A DNA stretch of 48,518 nt from Stegostoma tigrinum (taxonomy: Eukaryota), in NCBI RefSeq assembly GCF_030684315.1, contig NC_081388.1, positions 3,830,481 through 3,878,998 on the forward strand. The letters are read 5' to 3'. Of this stretch, positions 2,782 through 33,790 are shown piece after piece. The translations under genes and the position numbers were made by a program. Within the stretch, counting starts at the first letter, position 1. Every line of letters starts with the position of its first letter. Under the pieces are notes generated by a model, which saw only the letters and a list, made by a program, of their open reading frames with translations, ran no database searches and was not told the origin of the DNA.

Positions 2782-5765
2782 ATGGGGGATTTTGTAGTGA
2801 GGGGTTTGTTCCCTGTGCTGGTGTTAGTTGGTGCTGTTTGTTGCTCTGAAACTTGGCAACAGTTTCTGAGCCAGAGGTGTCCATGGAGAATAGTGAGAGC
2901 CACCCCTGTACCTGAGAGAGTCCCTCCTCATGGGGGTCCCATTGGTTCCAGTTTCAAAATGTCTGAGGGTGGGAGTGTGTCTCCACTGCAGACTGTGATG
3001 GTGCAGTGTGGAGAGCACACTCTGCTGGTCAGAGTCCAGTTGGATTTATTTGGCACCAAGCACCTGATTAAAGCTGCTGACCTGAGCCTGGGGACAGCAG
3101 GTTGTCAGCCAACAAAGATCTTCCCTGAGAACTGCACTGTCCTGTTTGACTATGGGCTGCATAAGTGTGGCAGCAGACTGCAGATAATGAGTCCTGTGTA
3201 TGTGCTAGAATCTTGCATGATATGTGGTTCCTTACTGTGTAACCCTGGTGCTCTCTCTTTGCTGTTGCTTTTTGGGTGGGGTAGGGGAACCTCTCTCTGT
3301 ATCTGTCACCAGGGATCTGCTCTTTCTGGATTAGACTGCTTTGGTTGCTCTCTGTCCCAATTGTTAAGCTCTTGTCACTTTCATCTACTAGAAGTGTCTA
3401 AGGCTCCTCCTGATATTTACTTTTCCTCTCCAACTTTGTTCATGTTCATCAACCACTGCACCCCCCCGCCCTCAACTTCTGCCTAACCCCACCCATGCCC
3501 CCAACTTTCAAGTCAGAGCACTTGACTCCTTTCCCAACTACTGGCCTGACCCCATTTTTCTCCCATTGGGGTGACCATTCTAAACAAAATGAGGTTCATG
3601 TTTACTGACCTTGCTCTTGTGGAGCTCTACTCTTTCTCCTTTGCTTGCCACTGGAATAACTGGACTTGTGGGATAAAACTGTTCTGTTTCCATCCTGAAC
3701 TGACTACTTGTTCTGCTCATTGAACCTGTGCTTTTGCTTTTCCCTGAGTTATCCCGCAACTGATCAGATCAGGTCCAGCACTCTCAATATGCTCTTAAAC
3801 ATCTTGCAGATTTCCCTCTGCATGAGGGCTCATTTTGAGTGCAAGATCATGTTTGAAGTCTGTCCATGTTCCTGTTCCCTCAGTGATTCTGCTGCATTTT
3901 CCAAACACGTCCACCTGATTCAACAGCTAAATGTTCAAGATCTAAATAAACTTGTTGTCTGATACCTGACCTGTGGACTGAGTCAATGTCTGGTTAAATT
4001 GACCCAAAATAACTAACCCTGAGCTGAGACCTATTGCTCCTCATAGTGCGTTTTCCAGCTCTAGGAGGAATCGTATATTTGCACAGCCTGTCAGCTCCCT
4101 TATGAGCATTCGTCAACAGGGTGATGTCTTTGTCAATGCATGAAGAATAGTCTTACTTCAGACCAATTCTTGATTCCTTAGCCTGGTATCTTTCAGATGA
4201 CTGGAGATTTCCTGATCTACACCACCCACCTGACCCACATCCCAAACTATCCTGGGTCTGTCATTGTGAGAACCAATGGGGCTGTCATTCCCATTGAGTG
4301 TCGTTATTTCAGGTGAGAGTCTTTACTGGATTGAGAATCATTCCCCAATTGTTGTTGTGATCTGACATTGTCCTGAAATGGTTGCCCTGTCTCTCGCCAG
4401 GAAGGGCAATGTGAGCAGTAACCCCATCAAGCCCACCTGGATCCCATTCAGCTCCACCAGGTCTGGAGAAGGGCATCTGTCATTCTCCCTGCGTCTAATG
4501 AATGGTATGTGATGGCTGGCTGGGGAGGGATCTCCTGGTGTCACTCACTGGGGGTTGCACCCACTGTCTCTCCAACCCTTGTCCTCTTGTACTTCAGGTG
4601 ACTGGCTTACAGAGCGCACTTCCACTGTCTACTCTCTGGGAGAACTCATTCACATTGAGGCGTCTGTTTCAATGGACAACCACATGCCCCTGAAGCTGTA
4701 CATTGACCGCTGTGTCGCTACACTGAGCCCAGGCAAGGACTCCAGCCCCAGATACAGCATCATTGACTACAATGGATAAGGAGCTCTCTGCTTTCTCCAG
4801 CTGCTGCCATCTCAATGGCTTCACTCCATTCACTTCGTGTACCTTTGTTCACCTGCAGTTGCCTCGTGGACAGCAAAGCTGAGGACTCCTTTTCGACCTT
4901 TGTGTTGCGGAGAAACCAGCGGGAGCCGGACAAGCTCAGGTTTGACCTGGATGCCTTCCGCTTCTATGGAGATGAGCGTTCCTTGGTAAGAGGAAGCTGC
5001 TGACTGGCTTTTCCCCACAGGGTGGGAGTGACTAAACACTGACTTGTGCTGAATGTGTCCCTCAGATTTTCATCACCTGTCACCTGAAAGTTGCTGCAGT
5101 GGATCAGGGAGATTCCAGGAACAAAGCTTGTTCTTTCCAGAAGCTGCACAAGATGTGTGTCCCCCACTCCCTGTCCCTTAGTGGTGTTGCTGAGGAGAGG
5201 TGATGCACCATGTGGTTGATGGGCTGTTTCTCCTGTTTAGCTGGACCCCACTAGAGGAATCAACCAGTGACATTTGTGCATGTTGCCATGTGGGGAACTG
5301 TGGCAGCACAAGGGAGATCATCCTTCCAGAGGAAGGAGAGATCTTGGGCCAGAAGCTGGTAGGTCACTGACCCACTCTCGTGGGACTATACCCTTTCCTC
5401 CCTGACCCTGACGGCAATGTTCCCTCCTGCAGGGAGTAAAGCTGGATTGAAGTGGGAGGGTGAGGCCTCAGTTGGCCCCCTGCTCATTCTGGATCCTGAG
5501 CTGAACAGCCTGGCAACTGAGCCCCTGACTGAGGTTGAGCAAAGGATGCAGGAGATGTCTCCAGGCGGTGAGTTGCCTGACTGCTAGTTTCCCTCTTTGT
5601 CCCAGTTTCCCTCAGTAACCATTGGTTTCTCCTTGTTGTGTAGGTGTGCAGTCTGAGCTGGTCCTGATGGTGTCACTGACAGTGACAGCTGTCTCCCTGG
5701 TCTCTGCTTCATTGATGGCCTTGTTCCTGTACAGGAAACACAAGCAAACAGACATCAACTTGTGA
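2782..5765 (+). pseudogene. zp3: ZP3 (ZPC)-like zona pellucida gene, copy A, probably disabled
   Basis: Exons 2782-3183, 4197-4312, 4401-4504, 4598-4775, 4859-4985, 5066-5154, 5241-5358, 5433-5567, 5644-5765 encode a signal peptide and ZP3 motifs ([66 protein letters not shown]). Lesions versus copies B/C: intron 1 and 4 donors are AT (3184, 4776), intron 6 donor GTGTGT, and exon 7 is 118 rather than 122 nt (frameshift, stop at 5448-5450). Confidence 0.88.
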
Positions 5766-11895: not shown

Positions 11896-11901
11896 TTTAT
11901 T
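11896..11901 (-). terminator. Polyadenylation signal, copy B
   Basis: AATAAA 3 nt after the ancestral TAA of exon 9. Confidence 0.7.
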
Positions 11902-11904
11902 CAA

Positions 11905-14361
11905 TTATTCCAACACAAGTTGGTGAGTTTGCTTGTGTTTCCTGTAAATGAACAAGGCCATCAATGAGGCAGAGATCAGGGAGACAGCCGTCACTGTCAG
12001 GGACAACATCACAACCAGCTCAGACTGCACACCTACACAACAAGGAGAAACCAATGGTTACTGAGGGAAACTGGGACAAAGAGGGAAACTAGCAGTCAGG
12101 CAACTCACCGCCTGGAGACATCTCCTGCATCCTTTGCTCAACCTCAGCCCAGGGGCTCAGTTGCCAGGCTGGTCAGCTCAGGATCCAGAATGAGCAGGGG
12201 GCCAACTGAGGCCTCACCCTCCCACTTCAATCCAGCTTCACTCTCTGCAGGAAGAAACATTGTGGTCAAGGTAAGGGAGAGAGGGTATAGTCCCAGGAAA
12301 GTGGGTCATTGACCTACCAGCTTCAGGCCCAAGGTCTCTCCTTCCTCTGGAGGCATAGATGATCTCCCTTGTGCTACCACAGTTCCCCACATGGCAACAG
12401 GCACAAATGTCACTGGTTGATTCCTCCAGTGGGGTCCAGCTAAACAGGAGAAAAAGCCCATCAACCACATGGTGCATCACCTCTCCCCAGCACCACTAAG
12501 GGACAGGGAGTGGGGGACACTCACATCTTGTGCTGCTTCTGGAAAGTACAAGCTTTGTTCCTGGAATCTCCCTGATCCACTGCAGCAACTTTCAGGTGAC
12601 AGGTGATGAAAATCTGAGGGACACATTCAGCACAAGTCAGTGTTTAGCCACTCCCACCCTGTGGGGAGAAGCCAGTCAGCAGCTTCCTCTTACCAAGGAA
12701 CGCTCATCTCCATAGAAGCGGAAGGCATCCAGGTCAAACCTGATCTTGTCCGGCTCCCGCTGGTCTCCCGGCAACACAAAGGTCGAAAAGGAGTCCTCAA
12801 CTTTGCTGTCAACAAGGCAACTGCAGGTGAACAAAGGTACATGAAGTGAATGGAGTGAAGTCATCGAGATGGAAGCAGCTGGAGAAAGCAGAGAGCTCCT
12901 TACCCATTGTAGTCAATGATGCTGTATCTGGGGCTGGAGTCCTTGCCTGGGCTCAGTGTAGCTACACAGCGGTCAATGTACAGCTTCAGGGGCATGTGAT
13001 TGTCCATTGAAACAGACGCCTCAACGTGAATGAGGTCTCCCAGGGAGTAGACAGTGGAAGTGCGCTCTGTAAGCCAGTCACCTGAAGTACAAGAGGACAA
13101 GGGTTAGAGACAGTGGGTGCAACCCCCAGTGAGTGACACCAGGAGATCCCTCCCCAGCCAGCCATCACATACCATTCATTAGACGCAGGGAGAATGACAG
13201 ATGCCCTTCTCCAGACCTGGTGGAGCTGAATGGGATCCAAGTGGGCTTGATGGGGTTACTGCTCACATTGCCCTTCCTGGGGAGAAAGCAAGCACTGCCA
13301 TTTTAGGACAATGTCAGATCACAACAACAATTGGGGAATGATTGTCAATCCAGTAAAGATTCTCACCTGAAATAACGACACTCAATGGGAATGACAGCCC
13401 CATTGGTTCTCACAATGACAGACCCAGGATAGTTTGGGATGTGGGTCAGGTGGGTGGTGTATTTCAGGAAATCTCCAGACATCTGAAAGACACCAGGCCA
13501 AGGAATGAGGGTCTGATCTGAAATGTGAAGTTTCAGAGCAGCATTTACAACAACATCCTACAATTAACATTTCTTTTGAGAGATGGACAGGCTCAGTGTC
13601 AATATGTTGTTTCCTCCCAGAGCCTAACAGACCAGAAAGGGCATTTAAAGGTCACAGCTCAGGGTCATTGAGACAGGGCAATGCAGCATTCCACTGTTCA
13701 GGAATCTGAGGGAACAGGAACATGGAGATACTTGAAACATTGTCCCCACTTGTGACAAAAGCAGAGAGATTACAGCCATGTTTCTCGTTCCTCATTCAGC
13801 AGCAAACCACCAGTATTTCTCAGGGTATATTGGAGGATATGCAGCAAGGAGACTCAACATAACAGTTGAAGTGAGCAACATAATGAAGTAAGCCAATATG
13901 AAAACGGGATAATATTATCCCAGCAGCCCAGTTGTTGCAGGAAACATCCCCAACATTACCTCCAATCTGCTGCCACACTCATGCAGCCCATAGTCAAACA
14001 GAACAGTGTGGTTCTCAGGGTAGATCCTGGTCGGCCGACAACCTGCTGTCCCCAGGGTCAGGTCAGCAGCTTTAATCAGGTGCCTGGTTCCAAATAAATC
14101 CAACTGGGCTTTGACCAGCAGCTTGTGCTCTCCACACTGCACCATCACAGTCTGCAGTGGAGACACACTCCCACCCTCAGACATGCTGATACTGGAACCA
14201 GTGGGACCCCCATGAGGAGGGACTCTCTCAGGTACAGGAGTGGCTCTCACTATTCTCCATGGATACCTCTGGCTCAGAAACTGTTGCCAAGTTTCAGAGC
14301 AACAAACTGCTCCAACTAACACCAGCACAGGGAACAAACCCCTCACTACAAAATCCCCCAT
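11905..14361 (-). CDS. zp3: ZP3 (ZPC)-like zona pellucida gene, copy B; as assembled it stops at 12144-12146 (412 aa, no TM domain)
   Basis: Exons 14361-13960, 13482-13367, 13276-13173, 13081-12904, 12820-12694, 12613-12525, 12439-12318, 12244-12109, 12032-11905, all introns GT-AG. Furin site RGRR and EHP-like [10 protein letters not shown] are present. Exon 8 is 136 rather than 135 nt, giving ...EPLG*. The ancestral TM exon 9 is still recognisable, with its stop at 11905-11907. Confidence 0.88.
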
Positions 14362-14615
14362 GATCCCAAACAACTCAAGCATCCCTTCCAGCCCCCACCC
14401 AGCTCCTTTTATACACACAACCTGCACTCACCTGACACCAATCAGACCAGAAGCAGCATAATTGAACCAATGAACCAGCCCCAGTCTCTCTAATTTCCAC
14501 CAATAAATGAACTCCGGATTTCTTACCAGGAGGGCCTGTTCCAACTGGACCAATAGGAATGGCTGTGAGTTGCTGTGCTGTCACCTGACTGCATGCAGCT
14601 CCACAAGTTCTCATG
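14362..14615 (-). promoter_or_regulatory. ZP3 copy B proximal promoter
   Basis: TATAAAA 14407-14413, distal E-box 14582-14587, proximal E-box and several CCAAT boxes; near-identical to the copy A promoter. Confidence 0.75.
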
Positions 14616-21763: not shown

Positions 21764-21769
21764 TTTAAT
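21764..21769 (-). terminator. Polyadenylation signal, copy C (ATTAAA overlapping the stop codon)
   Basis: Minus strand reads GGA TAA TTAAA; ATTAAA shares the last A of the TAA. Confidence 0.6.
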
Positions 21770-24610
21770 TATCCTGTCACAAGTTGGTGAGTTTGCTTGT
21801 GTTTCCTGTACAGGAACAAGGCCATCAACGAAGCAGAGATCAGGGAGACAGCCGTCACTGTCAGTGACACCATCACAACCAGCTCAGACTGCACACCTAC
21901 ACAACAAGGAGAAACCAATGGTTACTGAGGGAAACTGGGACAAAGAAACTAGCACAAAGAAACTAGCAGTCAGACAGCTCACCGCCTGGAGACATATCCT
22001 GCATCCTTTGCTCAACCTCAGTCAGGGGCTCAGTTGCCAGGCTGGTCAGCTCAGGATCCAGAATGAGCAGGGGGCCAACTGAGGCCTCACCCTCCCACTT
22101 CATTCCAGCTTCACTCTCTGCAGGAAGAAACATTGCAGTCAGGTGGAGAGGATATAGTCCCAACACCAAGTGGAACAGTGACTTACCAGCTTCAGGTCCA
22201 AGGTCTCTCCTTCCTCTGGAGGGAAACGCGATCTCCCTTGTGCTGCCACAGTTCCCCAAATAGCAACAGGCACAAATGTCACTGGTTGATTCCTCCAGTG
22301 GGGTCCAGCTAAACAGGAGAAAAAGCCCATCAACCACATGGTGCATCACCTCTCCCCAGCACCACTAAGGGACAGGGAGTGGGGGACACTCACATCTTGT
22401 GCTGCTTCTGGAAAGTACAAGCTTTGTTCCTGGAATCTCCCTGACCCACTGCAGCAACTCTCAGGTGACAGGTGATGAAAATCTGAGGGGCACATTCAGC
22501 ACAAGTCAGTGTTTAGCCACTCCCACCCTGTGGGGAGAAGCCAGTCAGCAGCTTCCTCTTACCAAGGAACGCTCATCTCCATAGAAGCGGAAGGCATCCA
22601 GGTCAAACCTGAGCTTGTCCGGCTCCCGCTGGTCTCTCAGCAACACAAAGGTCGAAAAGGAGTCTTCAGCTTTGCTGTCCACGAGGCAACTGCAGGTGAA
22701 CAAAGGTACATGAAGTGAATGGAGTAAAGTCATTGAGATGGGAGCAGCTGGAGAAAGCAGAGAGCTCCTTACCCATTGTAGTCAATGATGCTGTATCTGG
22801 GGCTGGAGTCCTTGCCTGGGCTCAGTGTAGCGACACAGCGGTCAATGTACAGCTTCAGGGCCATGTGATTGTCCATTGAAACAGACGCCTCAATGTGAAT
22901 GAGTTCTCCCAGGGAGTAGACAGTGGAAGTGCGCTCTGTAAGCCAGTCACCTGAAGTACAAGAGGACAAGGGTTGGAGACAGTGGGTGCAACCCCCAGTG
23001 AGTGACACCAGGAGATCCCTCCCCAGCCAGCCATCACATACCATTCATGAGATGCAGGGAGAATGACAGATGCCCTTCTCCAGACCTGGTGGAGCTGAAT
23101 GGGATCCAGGTGGGCTTGATGGGGTTACTGCTCACATTGCCCTTCCTGGCGAGAGACAGGGCAGCCATTTCAGGACAATGTCAGATCACAACAACAATTG
23201 GGGAATGATTCTCAATCCAGTAAAGACTCTCACCTGAAATAACGACACTCAATGGGAATGACAGCCCCATTGGTTCGCACAATGACAGACCCAGGATAGT
23301 TTGGGATGTGGGTCAGGTGGGTGGTGTAGATCAGGAAATCTCCAGACATCTGAAAGATACCAGGTTAACAAGTGAAGAACTGATCTGAAATGTGAAGTTT
23401 CTGAGCAGCATTCACAAGGACATCATACAATTAACTGATTTGTTAATGGAGCATGCCAGAGTCAGTACTAAGATGCTGTTTCTGCCCAGATCCAGCCAGT
23501 ATTTGGAGCAATAGGTCACAGCTCAGGGGTTAATCATTTGATCAATTTAGGATGCCACATCCTTGGAATCAGAACTCATTTGGACTGGGAGTGACACTTT
23601 GTTGACAGTGAAATGTGTTTGTGAAAGAGAGAACATAATTAGGGGAATAGGAACATAGACACTTGGAAACAGATCCTGATTCTCAGGATGAGGCACTGCA
23701 GACATTCTGTCGCTTCCTCATCTATCAGTAAACCTCCAACATTTGGACATACTAGGTCTACAGGACCAAAACTGATCAGCAGCAAGGGGATTCAAAATTA
23801 CTGTCTCAGTGGGCAGAACATGTAAGCTGGAAACATGGAATCTAGACTATTTTATCCTTGGAGCCCAGTTATTCTAGTGGCAAAGTGGCCAGGGCAGACC
23901 AAAAGAGCAAGTTACCTGAATGTTAATCTCACTAAGTAGGAGAGTCATCACCATGGGAGGAGACTTGCCCAAGGTAAAGGAACTAACTCTAGAAGAGGAA
24001 AAACTCTAAGCCACTGATTGCTCAACAAGTTGAGCAGAGCTAGAGAGAAGCTCCATGCAAACAAACCCCTTAATCAATAGAGGACAGAATCTCAGTTTGA
24101 GATCAGGAGAAAGGTTTCTTTCCATCCCCTAACATCAATGTCATCCAAGACAGGGTTAGAGAGAAAGTGTCAAGCACAAGCTCCCAGCAAGTATGCAGGA
24201 CTCATTACCTGCAGTCTGCTGCCACACTCATGCAGCCCATAGTCAAACAGGACAGTGTGGTTCTCAGGGAAGATCCTGGTTGGCCGACAACCTACTGTCC
24301 CCAGGGTCAGGTCAGCAGCTTTAATCAGGTGCCTTGTTCCAAATAAATCCAACTGGGCCCTGACCAGCAGCTTGTGCTCTCCACACTGCACCATCACAGT
24401 CTGCAGTGGAGACACACTCCCACCCTCAGACATTCTGAAACTGGAACCAGTGGGACCCCCATGAGGAGGGACTCTCTCAGGTACAGGAGTGGCTCTCACT
24501 ATTCTCCATGGATACCTCTGGCTCAGAAACTGTTGCCAAGTTTCAGAGCAACAAACAGCTCCAACTAACACCAGCACAGGAAACAAACCCCTCACTACAA
24601 AATCCCCCAT
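21769..24610 (-). CDS. zp3: ZP3 (ZPC)-like zona pellucida sperm-binding/egg-envelope protein, copy C, intact, 466 aa
   Basis: Exons 24610-24209, 23349-23234, 23145-23042, 22950-22773, 22689-22563, 22482-22394, 22308-22187, 22117-21983, 21896-21769 sum to 1401 nt in an open frame with GT-AG introns. Signal peptide, ZP-N/ZP-C cysteines, ZP3 Cys cluster, RGRR furin site, EHP, TM helix and short basic tail (YRKHKQ). Confidence 0.93.
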
Positions 24611-29857: not shown

Positions 29858-30990
29858 CCCCCCCCCCGTCCCTCCGCTCTCAGCACCCCCCCCGTCCCTC
29901 CGCTCTCAGCACCCTCCCACCCCCCCCGTCCCTCCGCTCTCAGCACCCTCCCACCCCCCCCGTCCCTCCGCTCTCAGCACCCTCCCACCCCCCCCGTCCC
30001 TCCGCTCTCAGCACCCTCCCACCCCCCCCGTCCCTCCGCTCTCAGCACCCTCCCACCCCCCCCGTCCCTCCGCTCTCAGCACCCTCCCACCCCCCCCGTC
30101 CCTCCGCTCTCAGCACCCTCCCACCCCCCCCCGTCCCTCCGCTCTCAGCACCCTCCCACCCCCCCCCGTCCCTCCGCTCTCAGCACCCTCCCACCCCCCC
30201 CCGTCCCTCCGCTCTCAGCACCCTCCCACCCCCCCCGTCCCTCCGCTCTCAGCACCCTCCCACCCCCCCCCGTCCCTCCGCTCTCAGCACCCTCCCACCC
30301 CCCCCCGTCCCTCCGCTCTCAGCACCCTCCCACCCCCCCCCGTCCCTCCGCTCTCAGCACCCTCCCACCCCCCCCCGTCCCTCCGCTCTCAGCACCCTCC
30401 CACCCCCCCCGTCCCTCCGCTCTCAGCACCCTCCCACCCCCCCCGTCCCTCCGCTCTCAGCACCCTCCCACCCCCCCGTCCCTCCGCTCTCAGCACCCTC
30501 CCACTCCCCCCGTCCCTCCGCTCTCAGCACCCTCCCACTCCCCCCGTCTCTCCATGCTCAGCATGCCACCCCCGTCCCACCGTCCTTCCAGTCTCAGCAA
30601 CCCCCTCCCATCCCACTGTCCCTCCACTCTCAGCAACCCCCCCCATTCCACTGTCCCTCCACTCAGCACCCCCTCCAACCCCCCGTCCCTCCACTCAGCA
30701 CCCCCCCATCCCACCGTCCCTCCAGTCTTAGCAACACCCTCCCAGCCCCCTGTCCTTCCACTCTCAGCACCCCCCATCCCGCTGTCCCTCCATGCTCAGC
30801 ATGCCACTCCGTCCCACCATCCTTCCAGTCTCAGCAACCCCCCCATCCCACCGACCCTCCAGTCTCAGCAACCCCTCCATCCCACCGTCCCTCCAAGTCT
30901 CAGCAACTCCCTCCCATACCGTCCCTCCAGTCTCAGCAACAACAGCCCCCCCCACCGTCCCTCCAGTCTCAACCCCCCCCCCCCCACACA
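29858..30990. repeat. 34-bp C-rich minisatellite (GTCCCTCCGCTCTCAGCACCCTCCCA + C7-9)
   Basis: About 20 near-perfect units to ~30545, then diverged units to ~30990. Confidence 0.95.
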
Positions 30991-31971: not shown

Positions 31972-33790
31972 ATAGAACATAGAGCATAGAACAGTACAGC
32001 ACAGTACATGCCCTTCAGCCCATGATGTTGTGTCGAACTTTTACCCAAAATCTAAGGTCTATCTAACCTCCACTGCTACCTTATACTAACATCCATATGC
32101 CTATGTAATAGCCACTTAAAGGCCCCTAATGAAGCTGACTCTACCACCCTCTCCCGGCAATGCATTCCACACCCCTACCACTCTGAGTAAAGAATCTACC
32201 TTCTTTCACTTTAAAACTACGTCTCCTCGTAATAGCTACCCCCACCCTAGGAAAAAGCCTCTGGCTATCTACTCTATTTGTACCTCTGATCATTTGTTCA
32301 CCTCTATCAAGTCACCTCTCATCCTTCGTCGTTCTAAAGAGAAAAGCTCTAGTGCTCTCAACCTTTCCTTGTAAGGCCTCCCTCCGTTCCAGGCAACATC
32401 CTGGTAAATCTCCTCTGCATCTTTTCCAATGCTTCCACATCTTCCCTGTAATGAGGTGACCAGAACTAGACACAATACTGCAGATGTGGCCAAACCAGGC
32501 TTTTGTACAGCTGGAACATAACTTGACAGTTCTAGAACTCAATCCCACTATTACCGAAAGCTAACACACCATACGCCTTCTTAACATCTCTATCCACCTG
32601 GGTTCAGAGATAACGGGAACTGCAGATGCTGGAGAATCCGAGATAACAGTGTGGAGTGGATGAACACAGCAGGCCAAGCAGCATCCTCGGAGCACAAAAG
32701 CTGACGTTTCAGGCCTAGACCCTTCATCAGAAAAGGGGGACCGAAGATGGATAGAGGAGAAGATAGGTGGAGAGGAGAGTATGGGTGGGGAGGTAGGGAG
32801 GAGATAGGTCAGTCCGGGGAGGATGGACAGGCCGAAGGCGGGGGCGGGGGAAGAGGTTAGTAGGTAGGAAATGGAGGTGCGGCTTGAGGTGGGAGGAAGG
32901 GATATCCACCTGGGTGGCAGCTTTCAGGGAACTGTGAACATGAACCCCAAGATCCCTCTGCTCCTCCACGCTGCCAAGAAACTTTCCGTTAACCCTGTAT
33001 TCTGCTTTCAAATTTGTCCTTCCAAAATGAATCACCTCACACTTTTCACTGTTAAACTCCATCTACCACTTCTCAGCTCAGCTCTGCATCCTATCAATGT
33101 CCCTTTGTAACCTAGAACAACCCTCTGCACTGTCCACAACCCGACCCACCTTCGTATCATCCGCGAACTTACTAATCCACCCTTCCACACCTACATCCAA
33201 ATCATTTACAAAAATCACAAATACAAGAGGACCCAGAACAGCTCCTTGTGGTGTACCACTCGTAACTAAACACTATGTTGAATATTTTCCACCACTACCC
33301 TTTGTCTTCTCAAAGTCAGCCAATTCTGAATCCAATCTGCCACATTTTCCCCTATCTTGTGCCTCCTTACCTTCTGCACGAGCCTACCACGGGGAACCTT
33401 ATCAAGCGCCTTACTTAAATCCATGTTTACCGCATCCGCTGCTCTACCTTCGTCCACGCATTTGGTTGCCTCTGCAAAGAATTCAATAAGGTTTGTGAGG
33501 CATGACCTACCCCTCACAAATCCATGCTGACTATCATAAATCAAACTGTGCCTTTCCAACTGATCATAAATCCTGTCTGTCAGAGCCCTTTCCAATAATT
33601 TGCCCACCACTGATGTAACACTAACTGGCCTGCAATTTCCGGGGTTATCCCTATTCCCTTTTTTGTGAACAAGGGAATGACGTTTGCCTCTTTCCAATCT
33701 TCTGGAACTATACTCGTGGGTAGTGAGGACGAAAGATCATCACCAAAGGCCCTGCGATCTCTTCCCTTGCTTCCCATAGAATCCTTGGGT
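31972..33790 (-). mobile_element. CR1 LINE ORF2 (RT) fragment with 3' microsatellite tail
   Basis: GNCRPVSVTSVVGKLLE, QHGFVRGRSCLTNLIEFF, MDLSKALDKV, MEFNSEKCEVIHFG; (TTCTATG)-like tail at ~31972-31992. Confidence 0.9.
32604..32902. mobile_element. Penelope-like insertion nested in the CR1, 13-bp TSD
   Basis: TATCCACCTGGGT at 32591-32603 and 32903-32915. Confidence 0.75.

Follow-up and report, generated by a model that had tools for sequence, protein, structure and literature searches.

A putative young loss of the membrane anchor in one tandem ZP3 copy of the zebra shark

One of three ZP3 copies in a 48,518-nt stretch of the zebra shark (Stegostoma tigrinum) genome, hereafter the window, is a redundant copy that has probably undergone a young and real mutation removing its membrane anchor. 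Self-comparison of the window placed copy A on the plus strand and copies B and C on the minus strand, and the mutated gene is copy B (14361-11905), a ZP3 paralogue. We consider that the frameshift most likely marks a redundant copy beginning to decay, not a new secreted egg-coat protein. Copy B would be one of many tandem zebra shark ZP3 paralogues under duplication-and-loss turnover, and it would have been a normal membrane-anchored ZP3 until a recent small A-to-GG mutation cut off the exon that encodes its transmembrane (TM) helix. Its transcription in the ovary would continue, as for its paralogues, its mRNA would escape NMD, and the 412-aa precursor would fold and be secreted, with the EHP preventing intracellular polymerisation. 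Cleavage of this anchorless precursor at the oocyte surface and its incorporation into the egg coat would both be inefficient; thus copy B would be a null or weak allele in early pseudogenisation, possibly still polymorphic, and the animal would tolerate its loss since ZP3 is provided by other anchored copies. The initial annotation had interpreted the same lesion as the possible emergence of a soluble ZP3 isoform beside a membrane-anchored paralogue in a cartilaginous fish, an interpretation that, taken as a whole, is partly supported; its assignment to a cartilaginous fish is correct, since the sequence matches zebra shark.

The gene structure was obtained from a three-copy alignment in which nine exons were set on GT..AG sites for copies A, B, and C. 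On the minus strand, exons 1-4 of copy B lie at 14361-13960, 13482-13367, 13276-13173, and 13081-12904, exons 5-8 at 12820-12694, 12613-12525, 12439-12318, and 12244-12109, and exon 9 starts at 12032, all of them separated by GT..AG introns. Exons 1-7 (12318..14361), which encode a putative signal peptide, ZP-N, ZP-C, the cysteine cluster, and an RGRR furin site, are undamaged in frame and splice sites. Exon 8 (12109..12244) encodes the spacer and an EHP-like motif, followed by the frameshift and the premature stop. It is 136 nt long in copy B, compared with 135 nt in copies A and C, and where A and C read CCC CTG ACT GAG, copy B reads CCC CTG GGC TGA. The GGG at 12148..12150 stands opposite GA in the other two copies, a net gain of one nucleotide (A to GG), and the premature TGA at 12146-12144 closes a 412-aa product; the exon 8/9 junction follows 35 nt beyond the last base of this stop. 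In the old frame, exon 9 (11905..12032) retains a full TM helix and basic tail up to the normal TAA at 11907-11905, but given the premature TGA it is now 3' UTR, and the TM helix is readable only in the frame abandoned where translation stops at residue 413. About 166 nt of 3' UTR precede the poly(A) signal AATAAA at 11896..11901, and exon 9 is counted as the last exon on the strength of this AATAAA at 11901. The exon map thus confirms the initial annotation with respect to the codon reading, the position of the stop, the length of the product, its distance from the last junction, and the loss of TM helix and tail from a protein that retains the ZP module, RGRR, and EHP-like motif. The +1 frameshift that it described holds as a net gain of one base, but not as a bare insertion of G, since an A was replaced by GG.

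Judged by its predicted domains, cysteines, and furin site, the product of copy B is a ZP3 that lacks the anchor. Pfam PF23344 identified ZP-N on exon 1 (27.9 bits against a cut-off of 24.7), while PF00100 identified ZP-C on exon 4 of copies A and C in a scan of 133 ORFs, a set outside which the B exon-4 frame lies; this exon of copy B shares 93% identity with its counterpart in copy C. Alignment to chicken ZP3 via the bamboo-shark homologue P0002 assigned the cysteines of copy B (C76, 108, 129, 169, 246, 268, 314, 331, 351, 353, 354, and 359) to the eight ZP cysteines and the four-cysteine ZP3 cluster, all of them identical in copy C. Copy B has in common with the intact copy C its RGRR site (residue 370), the 12 cysteines of the mature region, and both sequons for N-glycosylation. 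The two copies share 94% identity in the ZP module, and the N-terminus of copy B is hydrophobic (13-residue hydropathy 2.75). P0002 matched 3nk3_A at E 1.6e-99 and 8bqu_A at 3.4e-67, and copy B is like these chicken (PDB 3NK3) and medaka (PDB 8BQU) ZP3 proteins in its putative signal peptide, ZP-N, ZP-C, cysteine cluster, furin site, and EHP-like motif. The EHP label itself is putative and is based on motif and position. The E, G, P, and L of the motif are unchanged across 26 homologues, turtles among them, and an AlphaFold model of P0002 places a strand at 393-406 over it, but this model is poor (mean pLDDT 48.6, pTM 0.35; 26-sequence alignment); exon 8 alone had no sequence match in the PDB. 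Copy B is unlike vertebrate ZP3/ZPC in its missing TM helix and tail and in its large tandem array, and the shark gene has 9 exons, compared with 8 in human ZP3 (PMC7928326).

The extra base in copy B is very probably real, as far as can be told from the alignment of the three copies. There are about 360 runs of at least three identical bases across the 2281 aligned columns, and of the 14 indels three are of 1 nt and at most two can be read as run-length slips. In addition, the sole B-private substitution between 12263 and 12006 (about 257 nt) coincides with the indel, and a single A-to-GG event is simpler than a true substitution combined with an independent miscall, indicating that the extra base is likely real. 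The alternative is a consensus error, in which the true copy B would read CTG GCT GAG (T412A), the third G would be a run-length miscall, and the gene would encode an ordinary anchored ZP3. The extra base does lie inside a G run, dropping it gives back a complete TM helix and tail, Ala occupies the same position in the bamboo-shark model P0034, and near-identical paralogues are difficult to assemble; a weak further point is that the search returned no short protein with the C-terminus of copy B, although the lack of a candidate matching its exon-8 ORF is uninformative either way. However, run-length indels are not in excess over the aligned columns, the miscall would need to coincide with the only private substitution in its surroundings, and real-looking lesions are frequent at this locus, as copy A illustrates. 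We therefore regard a consensus error as unlikely.

If the mutation is real, it also appears to be young. In an unrooted three-way count, the B-private codon changes upstream of the lesion comprise 9 synonymous and 9 non-synonymous changes compared with a neutral ratio of 1:3.2, which argues that copy B has been under purifying selection and is at most a very young pseudogene; the private changes of copy A are 10 synonymous and 17 non-synonymous, in addition to four lesions. Behind the stop, the old frame of copy B is open to the normal stop, and its replacements V434L and L453I, which differ from copies A and C, are conservative and also present in the TM-bearing P0040. A TM exon that is open and undecayed suggests a young lesion. 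The absence of private replacements in about 118 sites behind the stop bounds its age at below 0.026 substitutions per site, but copy B's own branch, at 0.031, is about equal to this bound, so that the no-decay test is weak. Nor is the position of the lesion remarkable. Among simulated one-base frameshifts in copy C, 202 of 2790 (7.2%) keep the EHP, lose the TM helix, and meet the 55-nt rule; the same holds for 9 of 153 nonsense changes of one base (5.9%). With a chance outcome of about 7%, an array of some two dozen copies, and frequent lesions, one such case would be expected without selection. We also considered gene conversion: informative sites in exons 2-9 form 53 runs against 62 expected (P 0.028), with no clustering in the promoter and exon 1, and as this clustering is slight, we placed no weight on it.

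The stop lies within 50-55 nt of the last junction, as the initial annotation had stated, although this position would matter only if copy B is transcribed. The 50-55-nt NMD rule is stated for human data (PMC12668785); assuming that it applies to sharks, the rule and the length of the 3' UTR predict a stable mRNA. Translation would then give a precursor that lacks the TM helix, retains CFCS and EHP, and can probably be secreted, which agrees with the initial reading. The EHP blocks intracellular polymerisation and is required for secretion when the TM helix is absent (PMC8391237), and uromodulin cut after the EHP is secreted without polymerising (PMC7737619). The latter construct, UMOD-EHP, is the nearest experimental analogue and is like copy B in combining a ZP module, a cleavage site, and an EHP with no anchor, but it is engineered, homopolymeric, and mammalian, whereas copy B is a natural gene whose product would encounter heteromeric partners. 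The incorporation of mammalian ZP proteins requires membrane anchoring (PMC7737619; PMC8391237), and removing the anchor prevents incorporation in those membrane-anchored ZP-module systems that have been tested (PMC7737619). In one patient, a ZP2 stop between the furin site and the TM helix was combined with a ZP3 truncated at the furin site, and the zona was very thin or absent (PMC8391237). By analogy with these cases, a precursor that is secreted and contributes little is the likeliest outcome. The anchor requirement derives from mammalian proteins and would extend to sharks by analogy. In stickleback, ZP3 has lost its TM helix and the coat is still formed (PMC8362008), which indicates that anchorless assembly is possible in fish and that sharks may tolerate anchor loss.

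A functional soluble ZP3 is the alternative that follows the initial annotation. In this scenario, copy B would be cleaved at RGRR extracellularly, or would dimerise with an anchored paralogue, and be built into the egg coat, and we consider it decidedly unlikely; equally so is its stronger form, an independent anchorless, choriogenin-like origin in a shark, in which a stable mRNA would yield a secreted 412-aa precursor that, once cleaved at RGRR, would join filaments growing on anchored paralogues, while its TM exon is still readable. In its favour, copy B has every part that a TM-less precursor needs, with a stop placed so as to escape the 55-nt rule, and purifying selection is evident in the coding region ahead of the lesion. 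Moreover, ZP3 forms dimers as a precursor (PMC7737619), and the anchorless stickleback ZP3 provides a precedent. Nevertheless, a similar end is reached by 7% of random frameshifts, the TM exon is undecayed, the form is absent among the relatives compared, and the anchorless uromodulin construct fails to polymerise. The proximal promoter (14407..14587, minus strand), with TATAAAA at 14413-14407, ATTGG/CCAAT boxes, and an E-box CAGGTG at 14587-14582, has elements common to copy A and to the anchored copy C, and nothing in copy B suggests a liver route. No palindrome matching the estrogen-response consensus with up to 2 mismatches was found in the 5 kb upstream of copy B, where about 2 would be expected by chance. 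The functional, choriogenin-like part of the initial interpretation is thus not supported, given a lesion private to copy B and young in appearance, an array with a broken neighbour, and the missing estrogen element.

Medaka choriogenin L is TM-less, and copy B resembles it in outline only, with no TM helix after the EHP if the extra base is real. Like the TM-less ZP3 of stickleback (PMC8362008), copy B ends after CFCS and EHP without an anchor; unlike TM-less teleost ZP3, it nests among TM-bearing zebra shark paralogues, has an intact TM exon behind the stop, and lacks an estrogen element. Word searches in the available text of PMC10140178, PMC9330664, PMC6262864, and PMC13361971 gave no mention of transmembrane domains. 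Copy B does not appear to be an orthologue of the euteleost liver-type zp3, as judged from its place among TM-bearing zebra shark paralogues in our ZP-module tree, which contains no teleost rows. A mammalian precedent for a truncated duplicate is a polymorphic second human locus that encodes a ZP3 of 372 aa (PMC7928326), like copy B truncated at the C-terminus. The human case stems from an extra G in the last exon and from POMZP3, a partial, fused duplicate, whereas copy B is a full-length tandem paralogue.

The comparison with relatives was based on 81 fetched proteins, as a search with B exon 1 returned 78 and a search with C exons 7-8 returned 21, three of them new; 10 turtle proteins and 1 other were set aside, leaving 70 shark/ray-type models. 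According to a rough motif and hydropathy rule, 36 of these have both EHP and TM, 6 have an EHP without a TM, 6 have a TM without exon 8, 8 have neither EHP nor TM, and 14 end earlier. A counterpart of the lesion in related sequences, which the initial annotation had suggested as a check, was not found: none of the 70 models stops at the position of copy B, and none of the 81 proteins holds its new C-terminus. The lesion is thus private to copy B among the sequences compared, which are predicted models and cluster representatives, and such models can conceal frameshifts. Cluster P0071 (19 members, 91.8% to copy B), of which the representative alone was compared, probably includes copy B's own model. 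The six EHP-only models (P0004, P0027, P0053, P0055, P0066, and P0080) were set aside as TM-less precedents; all of them extend through the whole of exon 8 and differ from the other sequences beyond its junction with exon 9, as if exon 9 were missing from the model, and the end of P0027 resembles read-through of B intron 8. A real loss of exon 9 may nevertheless have occurred in them.

The same models bear on whether the lesion might be older. In principle, it could be shared by a small sub-family of zebra shark paralogues and be bypassed by splicing, through skipping of exon 8 or use of a cryptic donor at its nt 27, keeping the TM helix and dropping the EHP. Exon 8 has phase 1-1, and the cryptic donor AGG/GTGAGG (12217-12218, minus strand) is in frame with exon 9; homologous sites are found in copies A and C, and their use, like exon-8 skipping, would retain the TM and lose the EHP. 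Six of the 70 models are without exon 8, including P0040, a close S. tigrinum paralogue of copy B and the only one of the 81 proteins with its LFIYRK tail, and the P0040 locus may hide a lesion in the exon that its model omits. On the other hand, the exon-8-skipped models span four species and may be prediction artefacts, and since the EHP is required for regulated secretion and assembly (PMC8391237), an EHP-less spliced product is unlikely to work. We consider a splicing bypass quite improbable, marginally more so than the other alternatives, and retain the loss of the anchor in a redundant copy as the best explanation.

The neighbouring copies differ greatly in their state of preservation, with no lesions in copy C, one in copy B, and four in copy A. 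The initial annotation had placed copy B next to a membrane-anchored paralogue, and this is correct for copy C but not for copy A. Copy C (21769..24610, minus strand) is the only intact ZP3 of the three and encodes 466 aa with an EHP, a TM helix at about residues 430-452, and a tail. Copy A (2782..5765, plus strand) is a broken ZP3 paralogue and a probable pseudogene by its sequence. Its donors of introns 1 and 4 carry GT>AT changes at 3184 and 4776, its intron-6 donor has lost 2 nt at 5155, and a 4-nt deletion near 5320 throws exon 7 out of frame ahead of the furin site, which is thereby lost, with a stop at 5448-5450 after residue 383; the copy also has two extra cysteines. The dead donors and the exon-7 frameshift make it unusable as an anchored comparison. 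Copy A equals the public S. tigrinum model P0030, with 100% identity in exon 1 and in exon 6 together with the intron-6 read-through, and this 304-aa model works round two of the lesions, including a detour past the dead intron-1 donor. Intron 7 of copy C (69 nt; within 21963-22364, minus strand) is stop-free and in frame, and its retention would separate the furin site from the EHP by 23 additional residues. The three copies have different C-termini, owing to a 2-nt indel that distinguishes A from B/C in the final codons of the tail (11905-11926, 21769-21790, and 5745-5765), and the old-frame C-terminus of copy B is similar to the whale-shark models P0079 and P0081.

The array to which copy B belongs appears to be extensive. 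In a quick tree of ZP modules (78 rows, with 6 fetched proteins left out for being short or lacking a name), copies A, B, and C and six S. tigrinum models form one clade of 9 rows (SH-aLRT 85), or 10 rows with an added whale-shark model (SH-aLRT 95), and most other species likewise group by themselves. Altogether, 25 member sequences belong to the six S. tigrinum clusters, and the summed cluster sizes are 62 for Heptranchias, 36 for Scyliorhinus canicula, 34 for Chiloscyllium punctatum, 33 for Pristiophorus, 32 for Mustelus, and 27 for Heterodontus, numbers that count sequences, may include isoforms and other species, and serve only as a proxy for gene number. Several sharks thus appear to have tens of ZP3-like sequences, mostly in species-specific clades, while the representatives from rays stand for 1-4 sequences each (P0001-P0081). 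We suggest that shark ZP3 has evolved by repeated duplication and loss, as in catfish, for which arrays of 20 genes with 4 pseudogenes and 22 with 3 are described (PMC13704971); duplication and loss are likewise described for vertebrate ZP genes in general (PMC6262864). The zebra shark array is like those of catfish (PMC13704971), in which about 20 ZP3 genes lie in tandem, in both orientations, together with 3-4 dead ones, but the catfish arrays are a teleost expansion independent of the shark one. In the literature searched, which largely excludes subscription journals, the main outlet for fish ZP evolution, we found no description of large species-specific shark ZP3 arrays with broken members. 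One further protein, P0007, comes from a 1415-nt contig that carries the label Salmonella enterica, although it is a ZP3 of the shark type with both EHP and TM. Its place among the Cetorhinus models suggests that the label is probably due to contamination.

If copy B is simply decaying within a redundant array, it matters little, and the large species-specific ZP3 arrays of sharks, broken members included, are the more solid point. If its protein were present in the egg coat, copy B would show how the change from anchored to soluble forms begins, a change that was completed in teleosts, and it would do so beside a near-identical anchored control (copy C) in the same genome, and it would be a natural test of egg-coat assembly freed from membrane anchoring.

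The window contains no fourth ZP3 copy or fragment, and a Pfam scan of the 133 ORFs of at least 75 aa, with low-complexity stretches excluded, detected no other gene; apart from ZP domains, its matches were three fragments of reverse transcriptase and a single DUF below threshold. RVT_1 fragments at 33269-33736 and 38409-38932 (minus strand) belong to decayed LINE-type elements. Between the ZP3 copies lie inverted repeats of about 77% identity (6532-9303/17356-20139 and 27-879/15835-16660), which have no Pfam match and are probably old mobile elements. Further repeats are a minisatellite with 31 copies of a 34-nt unit at 29884-30938, a C/T-rich array at 45016-46740, and an array with 62 copies of a 22-nt unit at 47159-48518, and repeat arrays flank a gap of 418 N at 46741-47158.
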